From an uncultured virus (IMG/VR IMGVR_UViG_3300021135_000008) (Duplodnaviria > Heunggongvirae > Uroviricota > Caudoviricetes): a DNA stretch of 20,000 bases. The notes below the pieces were generated by a model, which had not been told where the DNA came from, did not search any database, and worked only from the letters and a program-made list of their open reading frames with translations. Shown piece after piece: positions 6,957 to 17,034 of the stretch; the stretch's first letter is position 1; every line of letters begins with the position of its first letter. The position numbers and the translations under genes were made by a program. The stretch is taken from the IMG/VR virus record IMGVR_UViG_3300021135_000008; one strand, 5' to 3'.

Positions 6957-6964
6957 TATAAATA
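6957..6964 (+). promoter_or_regulatory. T4-type late promoter
   Basis: Exact TATAAATA. Confidence 0.8.
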
Positions 6965-6969
6965 AAATT

Positions 6970-7125
6970 ATGTCGGACCTAAAGAGCCGACTAGCTAGAC
7001 TGCTGCACTCCCTAGCGGCTGTCTGGGACCTGGGCCCGCCCAGCTTGTCGGGGAGTGCTGTGCGGCTGCGTGGGGGTCGTGCTTAAGACAACGGGAGTCT
7101 CCAGAGACGAGCGTAGCCCACGCCA
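6970..7125 (+). ncRNA. Structured late transcript (ncRNA and/or 38-aa leaderless ORF 6970-7086)
   Basis: Stems GTCGG/CCGAC, GCACTCCC/GGGAGTGC, GCGTGGG/CCCACGC ending in CCA. Confidence 0.45.
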
Positions 7126-8674: not shown

Positions 8675-8758
8675 GGAGGTATGCGAGCAAGGTGCTCAAA
8701 GAGTCTTGAAAACTCTGCCACCGCAAGGTTGATGGTTCGATTCCTTGTACCTCCGCCA
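8675..8758 (+). tRNA. tRNA-Ser(TGA)
   Basis: AGAGT-CTTGAAA-ACTCT, long variable arm, GCCA end. Confidence 0.9.
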
Positions 8759-8764
8759 ATTCAC

Positions 8765-8791
8765 GGTCACGTAGCTCAGCTGTATAGAGCA
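8765..8791 (+). repeat. 27-bp direct repeat of the tRNA-Arg(CCT) 5' end
   Basis: GGTCACGTAGCTCAGCTGTATAGAGCA identical to 9156-9182. Confidence 0.95.
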
Positions 8792-8795
8792 TAGG

Positions 8796-8803
8796 TATAA
8801 ATA
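8796..8803 (+). promoter_or_regulatory. T4-type late promoter of HNH gene
   Basis: Exact TATAAATA. Confidence 0.8.
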
Positions 8804-8830
8804 AACCGATGCTACTGCATAGGAGTTAAT

Positions 8831-9178
8831 ATGCCGAATCAATTTACAAAAGCTAAACACCTTGGGCTTCCTCAACCAAAAGTATATCATTCTAAATCTT
8901 TAGAAGAAGTATTCAAGAAAGATTCTACTTATCTTCCACAAAAACTAAGATCTAGGTTTCTAAAAGAGAATTTAGTTCCGTATGAATGTACAGAATGTGG
9001 TAACACTGGTGAATGGAATAACAAGCCTTTAGTTTTACAGTTAGATCATATTAACGGAGTAAATACGGATAATAGGATTGAAAATCTTAGATGGCTTTGT
9101 CCGTCTTGCCATACACAACAACCAACGTATGGTAAAAAGAACTACACATATCAGAGGTCACGTAGCTCAGCTGTATAG
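8831..9178 (+). CDS. HNH endonuclease (free-standing homing type)
   Basis: CxxC...LQLDHINGVNTDNRIENLRWLCPSCH; AT-rich; SD AGGAG. Confidence 0.92.
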   Translation: MPNQFTKAKHLGLPQPKVYHSKSLEEVFKKDSTYLPQKLRSRFLKENLVPYECTECGNTGEWNNKPLVLQLDHINGVNTDNRIENLRWLCPSCHTQQPTYGKKNYTYQRSRSSAV

Positions 9179-9232
9179 AGCACGAATTTCCTAAATTCGG
9201 GGTCGCAGGTTAGAGTCCTGCCGTGATCACCA
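9156..9232 (+). tRNA. tRNA-Arg(CCT)
   Basis: CGAAT-TTCCTAA-ATTCG; full cloverleaf; CCA. Confidence 0.9.
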
Positions 9233-9237
9233 ACGAC

Positions 9238-9312
9238 GGTCCGATGGCGCAGCGGTAGCGCAGCTCCTTTACACGGAGAAGGTCGGGGGTTCGATCCCCT
9301 CTCGGACTACCA
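9238..9312 (+). tRNA. tRNA-Val(TAC)
   Basis: CTCC-TTTACAC-GGAG; TTCGATC T loop; CCA. Confidence 0.93.
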
Positions 9313-9519: not shown

Positions 9520-9541
9520 ATATCATAATGAGGATTTAGCC

Positions 9542-9946
9542 ATGTCAATGCACCTAGCACCAGTCTACTTCACGACCACCGGCTCGACCAAGCGCAAGCC
9601 GTCCAAGAGCAAGAAGCTCGCTGAGTCTACCGCCAAGCATGAGCAGTGGCTGCGCGACCGCGGCCTGCATCCCGAGCAGCGTAACCTGCAGCGAGCATTC
9701 AAGGGCAAGCACAGTATCGCCCTGCCTGACCTGCGAGTCGAGACCAAGTACGAGCTGTCCAACGGCATCGGCAACGGCTTCAAGCGCGGCATCATGGAGA
9801 ACCTACACAAGGAGTCGCCTGAGGTTCAGAAGGCTATCCTTGAGAAGGCTCAGCGTACCACGGTAGCCTATAACAAGGGACCTATACAATATTTTAGTCC
9901 CGAGTCAGACAAGACGAGCCTCGGCTCGGGATCGCGGAGGGGATGA
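9542..9946 (+). CDS. Basic phage hypothetical protein
   Basis: Start MSMHLAP after SD GAGGA; C-terminal AYNKGxxQY motif. Confidence 0.8.
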   Translation: MSMHLAPVYFTTTGSTKRKPSKSKKLAESTAKHEQWLRDRGLHPEQRNLQRAFKGKHSIALPDLRVETKYELSNGIGNGFKRGIMENLHKESPEVQKAILEKAQRTTVAYNKGPIQYFSPESDKTSLGSGSRRG

Positions 9947-10122
9947 TGGACTACGTCGACATTCAAGCGTGTGACCCTACGGGCATCTGGCGTACGTACA
10001 GCAACACCCCAGCTGGTAACTCACAGCGTATCCGTCAGCTCATGCAGGAGCTCAAGGGCTCTAAGAACTGGCAGGTGCGTGCAGTGGATAAAAAAGGAAA
10101 TATCGTCGACTTTTTATGTTGA
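9946..10122 (+). CDS. Small hypothetical protein (58 aa)
   Basis: Hand translation MDYVDIQACDPTGIWRTYS...VRAVDKKGNIVDFLC; overlaps the upstream stop; SD GGAGG. Confidence 0.75.
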   Translation: MDYVDIQACDPTGIWRTYSNTPAGNSQRIRQLMQELKGSKNWQVRAVDKKGNIVDFLC

Positions 10123-10127
10123 TGCTG

Positions 10128-10135
10128 TATAAATA
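10128..10135 (+). promoter_or_regulatory. T4-type late promoter of the tRNA-array leader
   Basis: Exact TATAAATA, 5 nt before an ATG. Confidence 0.85.
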
Positions 10136-10140
10136 AAACT

Positions 10141-10248
10141 ATGAACAAGACAGTTAAACATCCTCTTCCCTATAATATGCCGAGCGCGTTCTGCGTCATT
10201 GCCCAGACATGGGATAATGGTCGCGAACCAACGCGAGGGCGATCTTGA
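10141..10248 (+). CDS. Putative attenuator leader peptide (35 aa, contains all 20 amino acids)
   Basis: MNKTVKHPLPYNMPSAFCVIAQTWDNGREPTRGRS; stop region is complementary to the terminator 5' arm. Confidence 0.7.
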   Translation: MNKTVKHPLPYNMPSAFCVIAQTWDNGREPTRGRS

Positions 10249-10273
10249 ATATCTGACTCAGAAGAGTAAGTTC

Positions 10274-10316
10274 AAGGGGCGCCCACAGTAAAGAGTGAGG
10301 CGCCCCTTCTCTTTTT
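10274..10316 (+). terminator. Intrinsic terminator (attenuator)
   Basis: AAGGGGCGCC-CAC/loop/GTG-A-GGCGCCCCTT then CTCTTTTT. Confidence 0.85.
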
Positions 10317-10318
10317 AG

Positions 10319-10347
10319 TTGACAAATAACTCAGACTATGGTACTAT
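10319..10347 (+). promoter_or_regulatory. sigma70-type promoter P16 for the tRNA array
   Basis: TTGACA-17-TACTAT. Confidence 0.85.
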
Positions 10348-10400
10348 CTTAATATAATCTGAGTGGCTGATTGACATTGTTAAACGAAAGACAACTTCGG

Positions 10401-10493
10401 TTGTCTCTCCATGGATACACCAGTGGCCGTCCGTGTCTTAAAGTACGGCGTAATCACGTGTGACACCAATCTGGTGTATCCTTGTAGAGACAA
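10401..10493 (+). ncRNA. Structured RNA unit 1, closed by a 23-bp stem
   Basis: 10401-10423 pairs with 10471-10493, two mismatches. Confidence 0.65.
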
Positions 10494-10496
10494 TTG

Positions 10497-10654
10497 TTGT
10501 CTCTCCACAGATACTACACGGGGTACCGTGCATGGACGCATGCACTATGGATGATAGGGCCATCTTGCCATCCTGAGACAACCCGATCAATGGCTAAGGA
10601 AGGGAAGCACCCGACTCCGAAATTCGATTCTATGTAGTATCTTTGCAGAGACAA
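10497..10654 (+). ncRNA. Structured RNA unit 2, closed by a 22-bp stem homologous to unit 1
   Basis: 10497-10518 pairs with 10633-10654; internal GTGCATG-GACG-CATGCAC hairpin, GGATG/CATCC stem. Confidence 0.65.
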
Positions 10655-10655
10655 T

Positions 10656-10838
10656 GGAATTTGGACGGTACTGGCCAGCGCGCTGGTATCTGTGTCCTCT
10701 GGCAGGGACACGAACGAGGGATGCCAGTCCCACTAGTAGCCAAACAACTAATCGTGGCAGCGTGGCACTGCCGGTGAAGCACCTACGGAGATGGTAGGAA
10801 TGCGGTTGATCATCGATCATCAAACAGAACAAATGCCA
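10656..10838 (+). ncRNA. Multibranched structured RNA ending in CCA
   Basis: GGAATTTG/CAAATGCC closure; CTGGTATC/GATGCCAG, GTGTCC/GGACAC, GGCAG/CTGCC, CCTAC/GTAGG, TTGAT/ATCAA. Confidence 0.55.
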
Positions 10839-10846
10839 ACTAATTC

Positions 10847-10922
10847 GATCACTTAGCTCATTAGGTAGAGCAGCGGTCTTTTAAGCCGTAGGTGCTGGGT
10901 TCGAGTCCCAGAGTGATCACCA
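10847..10922 (+). tRNA. tRNA-Lys(TTT)
   Basis: Cloverleaf; loop CTTTTAA; CCA. Confidence 0.93.
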
Positions 10923-10931
10923 ATAGATAAC

Positions 10932-11006
10932 GCATCCTTAGCTTAGCGGTAGAGCGCTACGTTGACATCGTAGAGGTCGTAGGTTCAATCCCTGCAGGAT
11001 GCACCA
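10932..11006 (+). tRNA. tRNA-Val(GAC)
   Basis: CTACG-TTGACAT-CGTAG; CCA. Confidence 0.93.
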
Positions 11007-11011
11007 AGTTT

Positions 11012-11116
11012 GTATGAGACGATTCGAGTACTCGACTGCCAATTCGTTGAACCCAGAATCGAAAGGTGGAAAAGACTCTGGTCTACTATCCTCGTCGTGC
11101 CACCTTAACATCATAC
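11012..11116 (+). ncRNA. Structured inter-tRNA RNA
   Basis: GTATGA/TCATAC closure; CGATTC/GAATCG and AAGGTGG/CCACCTT arms. Confidence 0.5.
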
Positions 11117-11134
11117 GATGATATTTATGAATAA

Positions 11135-11211
11135 GCGGCGTTCTTCTAATGGAATAGGAATCCTCCCTTTCAAGGAGTTCAATATCGGTTCGAGTCCGAT
11201 ACGCCGCGCCA
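11135..11211 (+). tRNA. tRNA-Glu(TTC)
   Basis: CTCC-CTTTCAA-GGAG; acceptor GCGGCGT/ACGCCGC; CCA. Confidence 0.9.
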
Positions 11212-11217
11212 GTATAA

Positions 11218-11292
11218 CAGGGTGTAGCTCAATGGTAGAGTGCTGTGTTTGGAACGCAGATGCTGGAGGTTCGAGTCCTCTCACCCTGACCA
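11218..11292 (+). tRNA. tRNA-Pro(TGG)
   Basis: CTGTG-TTTGGAA-CGCAG; CCA. Confidence 0.93.
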
Positions 11293-11298
11293 ATACCC

Positions 11299-11374
11299 GC
11301 TCCCATCATCTAGCGGCTTAGGATACCCGCCTCTCACGCGGATCACACCGGTTCGAATCCGGTTGGGAGCACCA
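11299..11374 (+). tRNA. tRNA-Glu(CTC)
   Basis: CCGC-CTCTCAC-GCGG; CCA. Confidence 0.92.
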
Positions 11375-11384
11375 ATCTTTCTAG

Positions 11385-11413
11385 TTGACAAATAATCTAA
11401 ACTATGGTAGTAT
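11385..11413 (+). promoter_or_regulatory. sigma70-type promoter P17
   Basis: TTGACA-17-TAGTAT. Confidence 0.8.
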
Positions 11414-11447
11414 TAGATAGTGGGAAGAGCCCACGGATTAAATCGTA

Positions 11448-11705
11448 ATGGAGAACATGGTAATGACGACTTCTGCAACACAGCGCGTACTCGAAGCATT
11501 CAAGTCCGGTGAAGAGCTTACATCGAAGCAGATCGCTTCTCGCTTCAAGGTAGCCAACCCGACTGCGACTGTCTCGACACTTCGTATGCAGGGTTATCCG
11601 ATCTATCTCAACAAGTCAGGCAAGACGTCACGCTATCGTCTCGGCTCGGCTTCACGTAAGGTCATCGCAGCCGGCTACAAGGCACTAGCTGCTGGTCTCG
11701 TCTGA
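11448..11705 (+). CDS. Winged helix-turn-helix DNA-binding protein
   Basis: VLEAFKSGEELTSKQIASRFKVANPTATVSTLRMQGYPIY...YRLG; true start may be 11457 or 11463 (SD GGAG). Confidence 0.85.
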   Translation: MENMVMTTSATQRVLEAFKSGEELTSKQIASRFKVANPTATVSTLRMQGYPIYLNKSGKTSRYRLGSASRKVIAAGYKALAAGLV

Positions 11706-11735
11706 GCTACTCAGAGGGGATCATAAATAAGCTAT

Positions 11736-11812
11736 GGTCCCCTAGCTCAGTTGGTTAGAGCGTCTGACTCTTAATCAGAATGTCCTTGGTTCGATTCCAA
11801 GGGGGATCACCA
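11736..11812 (+). tRNA. tRNA-Lys(CTT)
   Basis: TCTGA-CTCTTAA-TCAGA; CCA; preceded by CATAAATA late-promoter variant at 11722. Confidence 0.95.
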
Positions 11813-11814
11813 AT

Positions 11815-11926
11815 ACAGCGGACTCATCGGCGCTCCATGTGCTGCTTCCGCTTCCGCGACCGACGAAATGTGAGATGGGCTGTCGGTTCGGGGTTTGAGG
11901 GTCATCCTGACACAACAAAACCCTCA
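11815..11926 (+). ncRNA. Structured inter-tRNA RNA
   Basis: Nested stems ACAGC/GCTGT, CTCA/TGAG, TCGG/CCGA, then TGAGGGT/ACCCTCA. Confidence 0.45.
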
Positions 11927-11935
11927 CTAGTTTAT

Positions 11936-12010
11936 TCCGCGATAGCTCAACGGTAGAGCTCTCGACTGTTAATCGAACGGTTCCTGGTTCGAATCCAGGT
12001 CGCGGAGCCA
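11936..12010 (+). tRNA. tRNA-Asn(GTT)
   Basis: TCGA-CTGTTAA-TCGA; GCCA end. Confidence 0.95.
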
Positions 12011-12012
12011 AA

Positions 12013-12106
12013 CACGATCTAGGTACCTTTAGCCCACCCAGTGTCGACCATGTTGGTGGTGCCCGTCGCAATCCTAGACGTATACGGTAGCCAAGACGTG
12101 AGGCTC
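12013..12106 (+). ncRNA. Structured inter-tRNA RNA
   Basis: TCTAGG/CCTAGA enclosing CCACC/GGTGG; AGCC/GGCT hairpin. Confidence 0.4.
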
Positions 12107-12117
12107 ATCTTATTCGA

Positions 12118-12191
12118 GGCAGTGTGCAGGAATGGCTACTGCGAGGTCTGCAAAACCTTCTATCCGAGTTTGATTCTCGGTCAAGCCTCCA
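12118..12191 (+). tRNA. tRNA-Cys(GCA), weakly paired acceptor stem
   Basis: GAGGT-CTGCAAA-ACCTT; U73-CCA; only GGC/GCC pairs well in the acceptor stem. Confidence 0.75.
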
Positions 12192-12197
12192 ACTAAT

Positions 12198-12299
12198 CGC
12201 TTGAACATTCGAGACAGGGACCTCTGAAGTCCTACCTAGCTAGTAACGGAGTTAGCTACCGTGAAGACATGAGGTTAGACGAATGTTTCGGCGGCGCCA
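12198..12299 (+). ncRNA. Structured RNA with long closing stem, ending in CCA
   Basis: CGCTTGAACATTCG/CGAATGTTTCGGCG; GGAC/GTCC and TAGCTA/TAGCTA hairpins; loop ACGG can pair with adjacent CCGT. Confidence 0.55.
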
Positions 12300-12303
12300 A
12301 TAC

Positions 12304-12378
12304 GGCCCGTGAATCAGCTGGTGTAGATACTCGTCTGTCTAACGAGGTAGAGGGGTTCAAAACCCCTACGGGTCGCCA
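12304..12378 (+). tRNA. tRNA-Asp(GTC)
   Basis: CTCGT-CTGTCTA-ACGAG; GCCA. Confidence 0.9.
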
Positions 12379-12385
12379 ATACAAT

Positions 12386-12478
12386 GGGTGAGTTGATGCT
12401 ACGGCGTGTGCATCCCCGGACTGTAAATCCGGTCCTTATAGGTAAACACTGTTGGTTCGAATCCAACCTCACCCACCA
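12386..12478 (+). tRNA. tRNA-Tyr(GTA)
   Basis: CCGGA-CTGTAAA-TCCGG; long variable arm; ACCA. Confidence 0.9.
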
Positions 12479-12489
12479 TAAATATCGAC

Positions 12490-12615
12490 ATGGCAAAGAA
12501 GTTATCAGAGAACAAGAACCACAAGCTAGTCCAGTACAAGAATGGACAGGTCGCGTCTTACAACAAGATCGCCGGCAAGTGGAAGGCTGCTAACAAGCCA
12601 TCTCGTAAGAAGTAA
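12490..12615 (+). CDS. Small highly basic peptide (41 aa), leaderless late gene
   Basis: MAKKLSENKNHKLVQYKNGQVASYNKIAGKWKAANKPSRKK; CATAAATA 5 nt upstream; fills the gap between two tRNAs. Confidence 0.65.
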   Translation: MAKKLSENKNHKLVQYKNGQVASYNKIAGKWKAANKPSRKK

Positions 12616-12690
12616 GCCGGATTAGCTCAGTGGTAGAGCAACCGCCTTGTAAGCGGTAGGTCGTCAGTTCAATCCCGACATCCGGCACCA
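12616..12690 (+). tRNA. tRNA-Thr(TGT)
   Basis: ACCGC-CTTGTAA-GCGGT; CCA. Confidence 0.95.
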
Positions 12691-12691
12691 G

Positions 12692-12786
12692 AATGTAGTG
12701 AAAGGGTGGCGTCCACCGTTCAGACCTCTATGCCCTATGCTGGCCAGCATCTATCGGGAGTGATTAGAGAAAAGAGCCGCTACATT
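12692..12786 (+). ncRNA. Structured inter-tRNA RNA
   Basis: AATGTAGTG/CGCTACATT closure; GGTGG/CCACC, CTCTA/TAGAG, ATGCTG/CAGCAT. Confidence 0.5.
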
Positions 12787-12788
12787 GA

Positions 12789-12857
12789 GTCGCTGTCAGT
12801 ACTGTGGGAAGTGCAGATGGTCAACACTAGGACACCGTTCGAATCGGACCAGCGACA
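12789..12857 (+). pseudogene. tRNA-like element with degenerate anticodon arm
   Basis: Acceptor GTCGCTG/CAGCGAC, D-like stem, CCG-TTCGAAT-CGG; no 7-nt anticodon loop, no CCA. Confidence 0.55.
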
Positions 12858-12861
12858 ATCT

Positions 12862-12924
12862 CGGGAGAGCTGTTTGGAAACACTCAGCAATATCTTGAAG
12901 GTTCAAATCCTTCTCTCCCGCCCA
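12862..12924 (+). pseudogene. Truncated tRNA-like element (Pro-like, one arm missing)
   Basis: Acceptor CGGGAGA/TCTCCCG, T arm GAAGG-TTCAAAT-CCTTC, CCA; 63 nt; contains TTTGGAA. Confidence 0.6.
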
Positions 12925-12930
12925 GTTCAT

Positions 12931-13004
12931 TGTCCTATAGCTCAATGGGAGAGCACGCGACTGATAATCGCGAGACCTTGGATCGTAACCAAGTAGGACA
13001 ACCA
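12931..13004 (+). tRNA. tRNA-Ile(GAT)
   Basis: CGCGA-CTGATAA-TCGCG; T loop ATCGTAA; CCA. Confidence 0.88.
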
Positions 13005-13005
13005 T

Positions 13006-13075
13006 GACGCGAAAGCTCACGTGAGCACCGCACTGATAAGGCGGAGGAATGGTTAAATTCCATTTAGCGTCGCCA
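13006..13075 (+). tRNA. tRNA-Ile(GAT), atypical second copy
   Basis: CCGC-A-CTGATAA-G-GCGG; 4-nt D loop; T loop TTAAATT; G73. Confidence 0.65.
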
Positions 13076-13151
13076 TGCTGTCTAAGTGTTAAAGGTTGCA
13101 CACGAGTTTGTGGCACTCGTAGAACTGGATCGATACCAGTAGACAGTACCA
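13076..13151 (+). tRNA. tRNA-His(GTG)
   Basis: CGAGT-TTGTGGC-ACTCG; T loop ATCGATA; ACCA. Confidence 0.85.
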
Positions 13152-13156
13152 ACAAC

Positions 13157-13231
13157 GCAGGTAGGTCGGCAAGGTGTCGAGGAGTCCTCATAAGGCTTTC
13201 AAGGTTGGTTCGACTCCAACTTCCTGCACCA
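13157..13231 (+). tRNA. tRNA with CAT anticodon (Met or lysidine-modified Ile2)
   Basis: GAGTC-CTCATAA-GGCTT; TTCGACT; ACCA. Confidence 0.85.
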
Positions 13232-13272
13232 ATATATAAACTAGTGACGACAACGCTAGACGAGGATTGATC

Positions 13273-14025
13273 ATGAAGGCCTACATCTTATACATTGACA
13301 AGGGTGACTCCAAGAAGTACGCTCTCGACACGCTCGCCTCATGCGAGGAACACGGTGTCGATGCTGAGCTCTTTCGCGGAGTGCACGGACTACTCAACGC
13401 CGACATCACGAAGAAGTACGGGTACACCATGGGTCGTCCCGGAACCTTCGACGACGATCGTCAGTATCATAGAGAGTTCTGCTGCTCACTCGGTCACATG
13501 TTTATCTGGATGAAGATCATTCAAGAGAACCAGCCAGCAGTGGTACTCGAGCACGACGCGGTGGTCAAGGCACCACTCAACGACATCAAGGTCAACGACG
13601 GCGAGATCCTATGGCTGGGACCGCGCGTATGGAACCGAGACGACTACTCAGTACCTAACGAGAGGGTATCTTTCAAGAAGGTAGACCACTTCGAGGGTAC
13701 ACACGCCTACGCCATCACGCCTATGACGGCTAGGAAGATGCTCGGCGCTATATTCTACACCAACCACATCACTATGAACGTGGACGGTCTTATGGGAGTC
13801 AACAACTCCTTCGGCATGAACCTCATGGCAGTCGACCCTCCACTGGTCGTCGCCGAGGTAGGTGACAGGGATACGTATGCTCAGGCCCCCGAGAAGGGGA
13901 ACGCTGAGACGAACTGGGAGAACCTTCCTGGATTCTTGAGAGGTCTTAGACAGGGTGTCAAGCCGTTCAAGACTACCAGCGAGGCGGTGAAGAAGCAGTC
14001 ACCGGTGTTCTCCTACAAAGCTTAA
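13273..14025 (+). CDS. Glycosyltransferase family 25-like protein
   Basis: CSLGH..IW..I....VVLEHDA and GTHAYAITPMTARKML motifs. Confidence 0.82.
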   Translation: MKAYILYIDKGDSKKYALDTLASCEEHGVDAELFRGVHGLLNADITKKYGYTMGRPGTFDDDRQYHREFCCSLGHMFIWMKIIQENQPAVVLEHDAVVKAPLNDIKVNDGEILWLGPRVWNRDDYSVPNERVSFKKVDHFEGTHAYAITPMTARKMLGAIFYTNHITMNVDGLMGVNNSFGMNLMAVDPPLVVAEVGDRDTYAQAPEKGNAETNWENLPGFLRGLRQGVKPFKTTSEAVKKQSPVFSYKA

Positions 14026-14100
14026 ATCGGTCAGGGAAAGTGGTAATCCGCAGGTCTCCAAAACCTTGAGAACTCAGTTCGATTCTGAGGACCGGTGCCA
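14026..14100 (+). tRNA. tRNA-Trp(CCA)
   Basis: AGGT-CTCCAAA-ACCT; GCCA. Confidence 0.88.
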
Positions 14101-14121
14101 GCATCTTAAACAGAGAACTAT

Positions 14122-14778
14122 ATGAACAAGAAGATCGCGCTATTCATAGACCATCCATACTGCTCGATCCACGGTGTCAACGGCATACTGAACGTGCTTC
14201 AACCGTACTACCAGTTTAAGATCTTTACTAGACAAGATATTCTCTATGATGACTGGTTCGACGACGTCGAGATGATAGCAGTTCCTGGAGGTCTAGGCGA
14301 CGCGTCTAAGTTCAGCATGATCATGAGGTGGCATATACCGGTGATAAGAGACTTCATCTTACACAGAGGAGGTCGCTACCTCGGCATATGCATGGGTGCC
14401 TACTGGGCCGGAAAAGAATACCTAGACATCCTAGATGATCGCGACTGCGTACAGTACCTTGCTCGTCCTAATACGGATACGAGAAGGCCGCATGCCAAGC
14501 ATCTAGAAGTCACGTGGAAAGACGAGAAAGAGAAGATGTTCTGGTACGACGGCTGCAGCATCGTCGGCGACGGCAGGTTCGACGTGGTCGCTAGATATGG
14601 AAACGGTGACGTGATGGCCGGCTATCAAGACAGGATAGGTCTCATAGGTTCCCACCCTGAAGCTCAGAGGCACTGGTACACCGAGTACGGCTGGATGAGG
14701 AAGGAATGGGACGAAGACAGGGAGAAGAAGAACCACGGTCTATTGCTAGACTTTGTAGAGGAACTAATGAAGAGATAA
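14122..14778 (+). CDS. Class I glutamine amidotransferase-like protein (BPL_N-like)
   Basis: VPGG, GGRYLGICMGAY nucleophile elbow, HPE. Confidence 0.85.
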   Translation: MNKKIALFIDHPYCSIHGVNGILNVLQPYYQFKIFTRQDILYDDWFDDVEMIAVPGGLGDASKFSMIMRWHIPVIRDFILHRGGRYLGICMGAYWAGKEYLDILDDRDCVQYLARPNTDTRRPHAKHLEVTWKDEKEKMFWYDGCSIVGDGRFDVVARYGNGDVMAGYQDRIGLIGSHPEAQRHWYTEYGWMRKEWDEDREKKNHGLLLDFVEELMKR

Positions 14779-14854
14779 GCTTGGGTAGCTCAGTTGGTAG
14801 AGCAGTGGTTTGAAGAACCACGTGCCGGCGGTTCGATCCCGTCTCCAAGCACCA
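14779..14854 (+). tRNA. tRNA-Phe(GAA)
   Basis: GTGGT-TTGAAGA-ACCAC; ACCA. Confidence 0.93.
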
Positions 14855-14858
14855 TAAC

Positions 14859-14935
14859 GGACACGTAGCTCAACTGAATAGAGCGCCGCGCTACGAACGC
14901 GGAGGTTAGGGGTTTGAGTCCTCTCGTGTCCACCA
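14859..14935 (+). tRNA. tRNA-Arg(ACG)
   Basis: CCGCG-CTACGAA-CGCGG; ACCA. Confidence 0.93.
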
Positions 14936-14956
14936 TATATAAGACAGGAGGCAGCA

Positions 14957-15442
14957 ATGAAGAAGATCGACGTCAACGAAGTGAAAGAGTTCCTAGATAC
15001 TATGGGACCTGAGACGAAGATCTACATCGGCTGCGACTCCGAGAGGTTCCCCATCAAGGGTCAGTGGCACGCCGACTACACGCTGGTAGTGGTGGTGCAC
15101 ATGGACGGTAAGAGGGGATGCAAGATATTCGGAGAGATCCAACGTGAGCGCGACTACGACACCATAAAGGGTAAGCCTAGGCTGCGTCTCATGAATGAAA
15201 CTTTTAAAATTGCTGATCTTTATATGAAGTTAGCTGAAGTTTTAGAAGATCGACATGTAGAAGTGCATTTGGATATTAATCCTGATGAACATCACGGTTC
15301 ATCATGTGTAATTAATGAGGCTACAGGGTATATTAGAGGTATGTGTAACGTGATTCCTATGGTAAAACCAAATGCTTGGGCTGCCAGCTACGCCGCAGAC
15401 CGCATGAAAGAAATTTTATACAACCAACAAAAGACAGCATAA
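14957..15442 (+). CDS. RNase H-like protein, YkuK/DUF458 family
   Basis: IYIGCDS, RLMNE, EVHLDIN...GSS, KPNAWAASYAADR motifs. Confidence 0.88.
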   Translation: MKKIDVNEVKEFLDTMGPETKIYIGCDSERFPIKGQWHADYTLVVVVHMDGKRGCKIFGEIQRERDYDTIKGKPRLRLMNETFKIADLYMKLAEVLEDRHVEVHLDINPDEHHGSSCVINEATGYIRGMCNVIPMVKPNAWAASYAADRMKEILYNQQKTA

Positions 15443-15447
15443 TCAAA

Positions 15448-15488
15448 ATCAGCATTCTTATAAATAAAATATAAGAATGCTGATGGAG
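15448..15488 (+). promoter_or_regulatory. Late promoter inside a 15-bp hairpin adjoining the RBS
   Basis: ATCAGCATTCTTATA/TATAAGAATGCTGAT perfect inverted repeat; TATAAATA at 15459-15466; GGAG follows. Confidence 0.85.
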
Positions 15489-15494
15489 ATATAA

Positions 15495-16100
15495 ATGAAT
15501 TATTTAAAAATATATAGTCAAATAATTGATAGGGCAAAAAACAATTTAAGAGAAGGTTATTTAGAAAAACATCATATTGTTCCAAAGTGTATTGGTGGTG
15601 ATGATACTTTATCAAATTTGGTTCTTTTAACTGCAAGAGAACATTATATTTGTCATTGGTTATTAGCTAAACATTATAAATTAAAACCTCTATGGGCTGC
15701 TTTTGCTATGATGAATGTATCATCGATTAAACATAATAGATTAAATGGTAGTCGATATTTTGAAAGAGCTAGAATAGCTAGATCTTATGCCATGTCAGGT
15801 GAAGGTAATCCTAGATTTGGCACTCCTTCTTCGTGTATTAAACATACCGAAGAAACAAAACAAAAAATTAGAGAATCAAAATTAGGTAAAAAGAGAGCTC
15901 CTTTTAAAAGATCATCACCTAATGAAGAAACTAGAAATAGAATATCACAAGCCAATAAAGGTAAAGCAGCTTGGAATAAAGGTATAGAAACTGTTAAAGA
16001 AGAATGTCCGCATTGTAATAAAATGGTTGATAGGTTAAATATGAAAAAATGGCATGGTGATAAATGTAAACTATCACCTCTTAATAGGAGTATATTATGA
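15495..16100 (+). CDS. HNH homing endonuclease with NUMOD3-type DNA-binding repeats
   Basis: EKHHIVPKCIGGDD..SNLVLLTAREHYICHWLL; HTEETKQKIRES, NEETRNRISQANKG; C-terminal CPHC; very AT-rich. Confidence 0.92.
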   Translation: MNYLKIYSQIIDRAKNNLREGYLEKHHIVPKCIGGDDTLSNLVLLTAREHYICHWLLAKHYKLKPLWAAFAMMNVSSIKHNRLNGSRYFERARIARSYAMSGEGNPRFGTPSSCIKHTEETKQKIRESKLGKKRAPFKRSSPNEETRNRISQANKGKAAWNKGIETVKEECPHCNKMVDRLNMKKWHGDKCKLSPLNRSIL

Positions 16101-16312
16101 CATTGATGTCACCGGAAGATGTTGAATATCACCAAACCAAACTTGATCGTATTATTCAAAAAGATACGATTGATTCTTGGACTTATGTTAAAGTTCTTCA
16201 ACATGAAATTGAATATCTAAAAAGTCAATTTCAAGATCATGATACAGGTCATCTTAGGACAGCAGTCAGTGTTCTCGAGAACCGTGTAAGAGAACTACGT
16301 ATACATATGTAA
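16097..16312 (+). CDS. Hypothetical protein (71 aa)
   Basis: ORF track; SD AGGAG; ATGA overlap. Confidence 0.75.
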   Translation: MTLMSPEDVEYHQTKLDRIIQKDTIDSWTYVKVLQHEIEYLKSQFQDHDTGHLRTAVSVLENRVRELRIHM

Positions 16313-16320
16313 TTATAATT

Positions 16321-16395
16321 GCGGGTGTAGCTCAGTGGTAGAGCTTCAGTTTTCCAAACTGACTGTCGAGGGTTCGATCCCCTTCGCCCGCTCCA
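16321..16395 (+). tRNA. tRNA-Gly(TCC)
   Basis: TCAGT-TTTCCAA-ACTGA; TCCA. Confidence 0.95.
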
Positions 16396-16396
16396 G

Positions 16397-16915
16397 TTAC
16401 TGTTCGTTAGTAGACGGGTTGTCGTCGTCGGCACTGAGCTGGACGGGACCCGTATACTGAAGATCATAGTCGGAAGGCCAGCGAATAGAGTGAAGCCTAC
16501 TCTTCGACACCCTAGCCCTGCAGACCATGTTGTTCTGGTTTCCACCTAGGATGTGGTAGGCTTCCTCGTCGTCCTCGCCGAGGTAGAACCCTACGTGTCC
16601 GCCGCCGTTCCTAGTGAACACCATGACTGCGCCGACCGACGGTTCAGAGAGCCCCTGTCCCCAGTTACCGTACTCGAGCGCGCTCAGCGGGTTCTTAGGT
16701 ACCATGAGACCGTTCTCGGACATGCAGTGGGCAATGAACAGTCCACACCAAGGAATGTCGTCGTGCTGGTAGTACTTGGCAGCGTATCCGCCCAGTGCCT
16801 CTGCCCAGCTGATGATCTGCGGGTTGCTAGGCTCATCGGGATGGTGCCTAAGGTCGACTCTGAAGCGCTCGACGCCGATCAGACTCTCAGCGGTATTCAT
16901 CCATGGTAGAGACAT
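16397..16915 (-). CDS. TIGR02594-like NlpC/P60-CHAP superfamily peptidoglycan peptidase
   Basis: N-terminal LPWM, PWCGLF, GGHVGFY, LGGNQ motifs; SD GAGGAG. Confidence 0.88.
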   Translation of the reverse strand: MSLPWMNTAESLIGVERFRVDLRHHPDEPSNPQIISWAEALGGYAAKYYQHDDIPWCGLFIAHCMSENGLMVPKNPLSALEYGNWGQGLSEPSVGAVMVFTRNGGGHVGFYLGEDDEEAYHILGGNQNNMVCRARVSKSRLHSIRWPSDYDLQYTGPVQLSADDDNPSTNEQ

Positions 16916-16959
16916 GTTTTCCTCCTATGCTCTCTCCTACAAACATATATATCTTTAAT

Positions 16960-17034
16960 GCGGACGTAACTCAGGGGTAGAGTTTTTGCTTGCCAAGCAA
17001 AATGTCGTGGGTTCGAATCCCATCGTCCGCTCCA
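16960..17034 (+). tRNA. tRNA-Gly(GCC)
   Basis: TTTGC-TTGCCAA-GCAAA; TCCA. Confidence 0.93.

Follow-up and report, generated by a model that had tools for sequence, protein, structure and literature searches.

We propose that a compact cassette preceding the tRNA genes of an uncultured T4-like phage works as a transcription attenuator under ribosome control and would gate transcription from a late promoter into the tRNA array, and we consider this reading likely. The stretch of DNA analyzed here (20,000 nt, hereafter the window) is part of the phage contig and has a G+C content of 51.6%. All features of interest lie on its plus strand. A T4-type late promoter box is followed at once by a short leader ORF that contains all 20 amino acids, the end of this ORF can pair with the 5' arm of an intrinsic terminator, and beyond the terminator lie a second promoter and the tRNA genes. 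The evidence seen directly consists of these parts, the exclusive pairing of the two hairpins, the recurrence of the arrangement with different sequences in other phages, its linkage to tRNA genes, and an excess of amino-acid diversity in the ORFs.

The larger proteins encoded in the window have their nearest counterparts in Synechococcus myoviruses, at ∼63% identity, and the record to which the window belongs (G001) is a 43.6-kb fragment (24%). When DNA was compared with that of isolated phages, the window and one related locus (L049) gave matches to tRNA genes only, and a second related locus (L008) gave no match. A search of the whole window against Rfam at the gathering score returned tRNA matches only. 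With the threshold relaxed to E values of up to 5, the region from 9900 to 11000 gave nothing meaningful, and no T-box or other described cis-regulatory RNA was detected there.

The late promoter octamer of the cassette, TATAAATA (10128–10135), is present in four copies in the window, all on the plus strand, compared with 0.28 expected. An ATG at 10141 begins five bases 3' of the octamer, a distance that gives a Shine–Dalgarno (SD) element no room. The promoter, the closely spaced ATG and the lack of an SD had been noted in a first-pass annotation of this DNA, and all of them are found at the coordinates given there. We predict from sequence that the box is a promoter of the gp55 type, based on the position of the box and on gp55 homologues encoded by two relatives, G002 (E = 6e-22) and G003 (E = 1e-21); the G001 fragment has no gp55 match. 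Cyanomyoviruses are described as having a late-promoter motif together with g55, g33 and g45 (PMC2984593). In the numbering reported for T4, the first base of the late box is –13 (PMC2988020), so +1 falls on the A of the leader ATG. Judged by this numbering and the five-base spacing, a late transcript probably begins with the leader ORF itself and is thus leaderless.

The leader ORF (10141–10248) comprises 35 codons plus a stop. By direct count it has 20 amino-acid types, 10 of them single-copy. It uses 31 distinct codons, and the complete codon sets of Pro (four), Lys (two) and Asn (two) are among them. These counts confirm the length and composition first annotated. All 20 types are reached within the first 29 codons, and a test for regulatory codons showed no run or enrichment of any particular amino acid. 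The probability that 35 residues include all 20 amino acids is 0.2% given the protein composition of the window and ∼1% given a uniform composition, and the leader is one of 32 ATG-initiated ORFs of 30–40 codons in the window. A single all-20 ORF in a single window carries little weight on its own. The further claim of maximal codon diversity did not hold. Given the leader peptide, 31 or more distinct codons would arise with a probability of 0.14 under uniform synonymous choice and 0.054 under the codon usage of the window, and codon diversity over the leader peptides was 579 observed versus 566 expected. Codon-level diversity beyond what the peptides themselves predict was therefore rejected. 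A second late box followed by five bases and an ATG is present at 6957–7086 of the window, and forms a contrast to the leader: its 38-codon ORF has 12 amino-acid types, and there is no terminator.

Folding predicts two hairpins around the end of the ORF. The 5' arm of an antiterminator (10237–10250) is made up of the final three codons and the stop plus the next two bases, and its 3' arm lies at 10270–10284 (13 pairs, –19.9 kcal/mol; z = –3.2 versus 300 shuffles). This 3' arm overlaps the 5' arm of an intrinsic terminator (10274–10317), which has a G+C-rich stem (10274–10283/10299–10308), a 15-nt loop and a T-rich tail, and a predicted energy of –25.3 kcal/mol, or –29.6 kcal/mol with an A/U extension. 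A simple terminator scan missed this element because the loop limit of the scan was 8. Nucleotides 10274–10284 are common to both predicted folds, which are thus mutually exclusive, and the pairing of the ORF end with the terminator arm stands as first annotated. The unit from promoter to terminator, ∼175 nt in length, gave z = –3.65.

To follow the competition between the hairpins, we folded nascent RNA ending at 10290, with the ribosome footprint masked for each A-site codon in turn. The 13-bp antiterminator formed when there was no ribosome or when the A site was at codon 28 or earlier. It was cut to 8 bp with the A site at codon 30, and was lost with the A site anywhere from codon 32 to the stop. 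As codons 1–29 already include the full set of 20 amino acids, every type in the window leader sits where a stall would leave the antiterminator free. In full-length RNA at equilibrium, the terminator was preferred at every ribosome position (–25.3 versus –19.9 kcal/mol). This means that antitermination must be kinetic, depending on trapping of the earlier fold. Kinetic switching is accepted for classical attenuators too. Within the ORF, codons 15–32 of the window leader can form a hairpin with z = –1.2. Across nine members of the family described below, z values ranged from –0.1 to –3.3, and no consistent ORF-internal pause or anti-antiterminator (1:2) hairpin was found; a conserved pause hairpin is hence unsupported. 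Lacking such a hairpin, an untranslated message should read through, unlike the trp case.

Directly after the terminator is a sigma-70-type promoter (10319–10347), termed P16 in the first-pass annotation. It matches the consensus at 10 of 12 positions, has a 17-bp spacer and a TG, and is conserved in three relatives of the window (L001 and L002/L003). ARAGORN identified 21 tRNA genes on the plus strand between 8675 and 17034, three before the cassette (8675–9312) and 18 after it (10847–17034), the latter interspersed with small ORFs and homing-endonuclease genes. Together with one tRNA-like Rfam match, this makes 19 downstream genes rather than the twenty first counted. The tRNA-like element (13006–13072; Rfam, 36.5 bits) lies directly after tRNA-Ile, has an anticodon of the Ile type (GAU), is missed by ARAGORN, and is probably a decayed tandem copy. 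Two genes inside the array, encoding an HNH endonuclease (8796–9178) and a homing endonuclease (15459–16100) by PHROG match, have a late box each of their own. With P16 lying between the terminator and the array, the switch could do no more than supplement the output of this promoter with late transcription. This promoter, the three tRNA genes 5' of the cassette, and the absence of the cassette from some synteny relatives (below) weigh against the proposed gating.

Longer records show how complete such arrays can be. G001 adds one further tRNA gene (Ala) beyond the window. In G002, the record of the window's 94% relative (91% complete), 25 tRNA genes covering all 20 amino acids lie behind the leader. 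G003, a complete genome of 170 kb with terminal repeats, has a leader that abuts a 25-tRNA array, again for all 20 amino acids, and no tRNA gene upstream of the leader. The idea that a leader mirrors its array was rejected: Gln and Gly are missing from the leader of G007, Ala and Asp from that of G008, and Cys from that of G011, and the arrays of these phages hold tRNAs for those amino acids.

To find relatives of the cassette, we used the 135-residue protein encoded 5' of it (9539–9946) in a synteny search, which led to 20 viral contigs. The closest relative (L001, 94% identity) has kept the complete cassette, with two substitutions at non-unique residues and still 20 amino-acid types; by eye, its ORF varies in the 5' third and is the same as that of the window over the other two thirds. 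In L008 (67% identity), a cassette of unrelated sequence occupies the same place. It consists of a late box, a five-base spacer, an ATG and a 42-codon ORF with 20 amino-acid types. Its terminator is a different one, and the 5' arm of that terminator pairs with the region of the stop; further on come a sigma-70-type promoter and tRNA genes. A consensus –35 hexamer was seen by eye 17 bases 5' of the late box of L008 (3780–3820). This late box could double as the –10 element of an early promoter, in which case both starts would fall on the ATG. Other synteny relatives (L002/L003, L004–L006 and L007) do not have the cassette. The early promoter directly follows the upstream gene in L002/L003, and a late box lies directly 5' of the downstream structured RNA in L004–L006. 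Presence in some synteny relatives and absence from others indicate a module that comes and goes.

Additional members were sought with sequence patterns that ignored ORF content and amino-acid composition. The late box, five-base spacer and ATG alone matched at least 118 loci and yielded two new members of the cassette family among the short ORFs listed. When a C-rich word 115–145 bases from the late start was also specified, 21 viral loci were found, nine of which are members; in metagenomes the same pattern matched at least 120 loci, with six member loci among the 121 matches listed. A third pattern, comprising the late box, any five bases, an ATG and a terminator-like pair of words 110–140 bases further on, matched 23 viral loci. 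In all 23, an ORF of 29–36 codons ends at the helix, and 20 of the 23 have a same-strand tRNA gene no more than 600 nt away. The 14 unique peptides from this search contain 16, 16, 18, 16, 20, 16, 20, 19, 17, 20, 20, 19, 20 and 16 amino-acid types, respectively, all 20 being present in five. All-20 content is thus frequent, not universal.

In total, the family consists of 22 distinct mini-ORFs of 29–42 codons from uncultured T4-like phages, nearly all directly 5' of same-strand tRNA genes, and 12 of the 22 have all 20 amino acids. In every one of the 22, the pairing partner of the terminator 5' arm is either the final codons of the ORF or the region of the stop, and the distance from the stop codon to the terminator stem is 24–33 nt. 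Folds of 20 members have z values of –2 or lower versus 300 dinucleotide shuffles, the exceptions being L312 (–1.4) and L318 (–1.05). The helix sequences are unlike between lineages, a difference read from per-sequence folds; MAFFT alignments of the members left the helices out of register. Two look-alikes that fit the formal pattern of the cassette and have no downstream tRNA gene (L215 and L216) contain 15 and 11 amino-acid types, and their folds (z = –0.6 and –0.2) are no better than those of shuffled sequences. Divergent T4-like phages hence carry a mini-ORF of high amino-acid diversity, headed by a late promoter and a five-base spacer and followed by terminator pairing and tRNA genes. This is the outcome of the comparison of relatives proposed with the first-pass annotation, and it supports the reading of an all-amino-acid attenuator, the function of which we infer from these shared features. 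Whole-record pattern searches did not find the cassette in the cultured phages S-CRM01 (searched with a 7-base box), B3, S-PRM1, S-CAM9, S-SKS1 and KVP40. Three sites with a five-base spacer and an ATG were found in these six records; the two whose start is annotated or heads an ORF of mini-ORF size proved to be ordinary gene starts. A related arrangement was seen in the viral contigs L360–L362 (301–459), where a late box with a four-base spacer precedes a 30-codon ORF with a very high Leu content (13 types), then a terminator and a tRNA-Leu gene. This ORF may represent an amino-acid-specific version of the same switch.

The spacing between late box and ATG was compared by varying it in a pattern otherwise identical. 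Five bases gave the 23 loci described above, six bases gave seven loci (with two member-like ORFs among five unique peptides), and four bases gave five loci (with one candidate). The preference for five bases fits a transcript that would start on the ATG. Spacing of this kind is not particular to the cassette. Two cultured cyanophages, S-CRM01 and B3, have annotated start codons of real genes exactly five bases 3' of a late box. Moreover, in 62 of the 118 matches listed for the late box, five-base spacer and ATG, an ORF that is at least 61 codons long, or runs off the locus, begins at the ATG, and so this layout is an ordinary late-gene start. Recognizable structural genes occur among these ORFs of at least 61 codons in the matches listed (L022–L139). 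These data suggest that such phages routinely make late messages that lack a 5' leader.

We assessed amino-acid diversity with one ORF per group of related sequences. The tRNA-linked ORFs were clustered at 50% identity, giving 14 clusters, and the least diverse member of each was used; one ORF in this set, overlapping a tRNA gene, is spurious. Three null models were simulated, based on the protein composition of the window, the pooled composition of the leaders, and a uniform composition. The amino-acid types of the 14 clusters sum to 252, compared with 218–228 under the nulls (sd about 5), and a sum this high was never reached in 30000 simulations, whichever of the three nulls was used (P < 1/30000). 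Five clusters have all 20 types versus 0.03–0.1 expected, and again none of 30000 simulations reached five. ORFs of 21–57 codons with the same promoter layout and no detected tRNA gene have mostly 11–17 types. Four of these exceed 17 types, and include family members whose flank is too short to show a tRNA gene.

Comparison of related leaders gives a view of how diversity is maintained. L217 and L149 differ at 10 of 32 residues, yet both have all 20 types, with the single-copy Cys, His and Gln moved to new positions. Retention of all 20 types through these changes has a probability of 0.024 if substitutions fall at random positions and 0.007 if they fall at the observed positions. L328 is a counter-example, having lost its only Leu. 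In members of 31–32 codons, three or four types are found only in the last codons, on the antiterminator arm. A stall at these residues cannot free the arm and would still favor termination. The tail supplies exactly the types missing from the rest, which suggests selection over the full length of the ORF. Retention of the tail residues is unexplained by a simple occlusion model.

From the arrangement described above, we infer a start site, translation of the leader, a kinetic competition and a physiological trigger, which would act together as follows. A late polymerase of the gp55 type would start at the A of the ATG, give or take one base, and produce a leaderless RNA. A 70S ribosome would load at once and trail the polymerase through the 35-codon ORF, needing every kind of aminoacyl-tRNA on the way. 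If it kept pace, it would cover the last codons and the stop, and with the 5' arm of the antiterminator blocked, the terminator would form and transcription would end at ∼10316. If instead the ribosome lagged or stalled at the first ∼29 codons, or never initiated, the antiterminator would form first, and the polymerase would read through, pass the early promoter region and enter the tRNA array. The outcome would be feedback, with slow decoding giving more phage tRNA. A more specific possibility, which we raise only tentatively, is a pan-tRNA alarm: late in infection, loss of any one host tRNA would stall the leading ribosome, and the full tRNA set of the phage would be transcribed. Triggers would include anticodon nucleases, other tRNA-cleaving defense or toxin systems, and host tRNA decay. 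The cassette would then be a self-tuning counter-defense, widespread in uncultured T4-like phages.

The same parts could also serve as a general sensor of transcription–translation coupling, with logic like that of pyrBI, reading ribosome initiation and average speed and not particular tRNAs. Such a sensor would report ribosome supply, host shut-off or the translation blocks of abortive infection, and the balanced content of the ORF would simply make it a fair sample of an average message. Several observations are compatible with it, namely the lack of a consistent anti-antiterminator, owing to which a ribosome that never initiates has the same effect as one that stalls, the confinement of some residues to the blind tail, the mismatch between leader content and tRNA array, and codon diversity that is not in excess. 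But a fair sample does not need all 20 amino acids in 31–35 codons, and the diversity seen beats even the uniform null. The preservation of single-copy residues through 10 substitutions and the linkage to tRNA genes in 20 of 23 loci also speak against a general sensor, and we regard this alternative as rather unlikely.

Two other explanations give the leader ORF no regulatory part. One holds that the ORF is a small late protein gene with a terminator of its own, the hairpin only stabilizing or terminating the mRNA, with no regulatory link to tRNA. The start is indeed a normal one for genes of these phages, and the ORF is open in every member, but the peptides cannot be aligned across lineages (14 clusters at 50% identity), the window leader peptide has no PHROG match, and the 42-residue peptide of L008 has no homologue among proteins of 23–74 residues. 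What is conserved is length, composition, the position of the stop relative to the helix, and the downstream tRNA genes, and a protein gene is accordingly improbable. The other holds that the product of the cassette is a late small RNA that is not translated, or that its terminator simply insulates, keeping late transcripts out of the early tRNA operon, and that the ORF is incidental. An incidental ORF would not, in all 23 loci found irrespective of frame, remain open for 29–36 codons and stop at the helix, nor would its ATG stay five bases from the promoter box, and excess amino-acid diversity would be unexpected. In favor of this explanation are the compact, stable fold of the unit, the preference for the terminator in every fold at equilibrium, and the comparison of the window with L001, in which by eye the ORF differs in the 5' third and is identical in the 3' two thirds; we nevertheless find it improbable as well. 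We therefore retain attenuation governed by the translating ribosome as the preferred reading.

Well-known enterobacterial attenuators include trpL, hisL and the multivalent thr and ilv leaders. Ribosome-mediated attenuation by leader peptides has been treated as a general mechanism in enterobacterial amino-acid operons (PMC1183508). Like trpL and hisL, the phage cassette has a short 5' ORF upstream of the regulated same-strand genes (here tRNA genes), an intrinsic terminator between the two (10274–10317), and an exclusive antiterminator that, by the predicted folds, could be removed by a ribosome at the end of the ORF. The output proposed here also has the same sense, a ribosome at the ORF end causing termination and a lagging ribosome read-through. 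Unlike trpL and hisL, the leader has no runs of regulatory codons and uses nearly every amino acid once or twice, the regulated genes are tRNA genes and not those of biosynthetic enzymes, and transcription is from a phage late promoter, with an RNA that is probably leaderless. In addition, no consistent 1:2-type hairpin was found, so that absence of translation should give read-through and not super-attenuation.

Leaderless polycysteine short ORFs of mycobacteria are described as cysteine-responsive attenuators (10.1101/834739). These resemble the phage cassette, according to that report, in having a sensory short ORF at a leaderless 5' end and a stalled ribosome that alters the downstream RNA. 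As presented there, the mycobacterial system responds to one amino acid via a Cys tract and frees a ribosome-binding site, acting by translational control, whereas the phage leader samples all amino acids and its competing structure is a transcription terminator. In both the phage leader as proposed and the pyrBI leader of E. coli, what is read is how near the ribosome trails the polymerase. The pyrBI attenuator senses this closeness and not one amino acid, and a close ribosome blocks the terminator hairpin itself, giving read-through. In the phage cassette, unlike pyrBI, the stop codon lies 24–33 nt before the terminator stem, so a ribosome keeping pace would lead to termination. Genes of the translation apparatus are controlled by tRNA charging in T-box systems and by a Phe leader in the pheST attenuator. 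Here, too, decoding machinery would be regulated by decoding capacity; unlike T-boxes, the phage leader has no T-box or other Rfam match. The pheST attenuator responds to a single amino acid and has a synthetase as its target, whereas the phage leader would gate tRNA genes. Overall, the element is best described as a variant of ribosome-mediated attenuation and not a classical member, being driven by a late promoter, probably leaderless, sampling all or nearly all amino acids, and gating tRNA genes. A literature search of open-access papers and bioRxiv, in which work in subscription journals could be missed, returned no leader-peptide attenuator before phage tRNA genes and no all-amino-acid leader.

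Phage tRNA arrays are usually viewed as aids to codon usage or as replacements for host tRNAs that have decayed or been cleaved. To our knowledge, hardly anything has been established about how expression of these arrays is controlled. If our reading is true, an all-20 leader in front of an all-20 array would form a feedback loop on overall decoding capacity, and the idea of attenuation, classically tied to single amino acids, would take in the tRNA pool as a whole. It would also provide a testable link between phage tRNA genes and host defenses that target tRNA, and a compact natural part with which to sense translation stress.

Other features around the tRNA genes were seen in the window and its relatives. 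In L078 (601–700) and in G011 (L340, 2224–2315), late boxes immediately adjoin a tRNA gene, neither leader nor terminator intervening, and may allow ungated expression of tRNA genes late in infection. Two related phage contigs, L018 (452–841) and G003 (L337, 9145–9482), carry permuted tmRNA genes with tag peptides. In the window, ∼470 nt between the early promoter and the first downstream tRNA gene are non-coding (10385–10650, extending to ∼10840). This stretch has two stem-closed modules, at 10411–10481 (z = –2.9) and 10507–10646 (z = –2.2), separated by small hairpins with a common 7-base motif (z = –3.9 and –3.3). It has no Rfam match, and its first small hairpin is identical in L001–L006. 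The structured modules of 10385–10840 may be processed small RNAs that are co-transcribed with the tRNAs.
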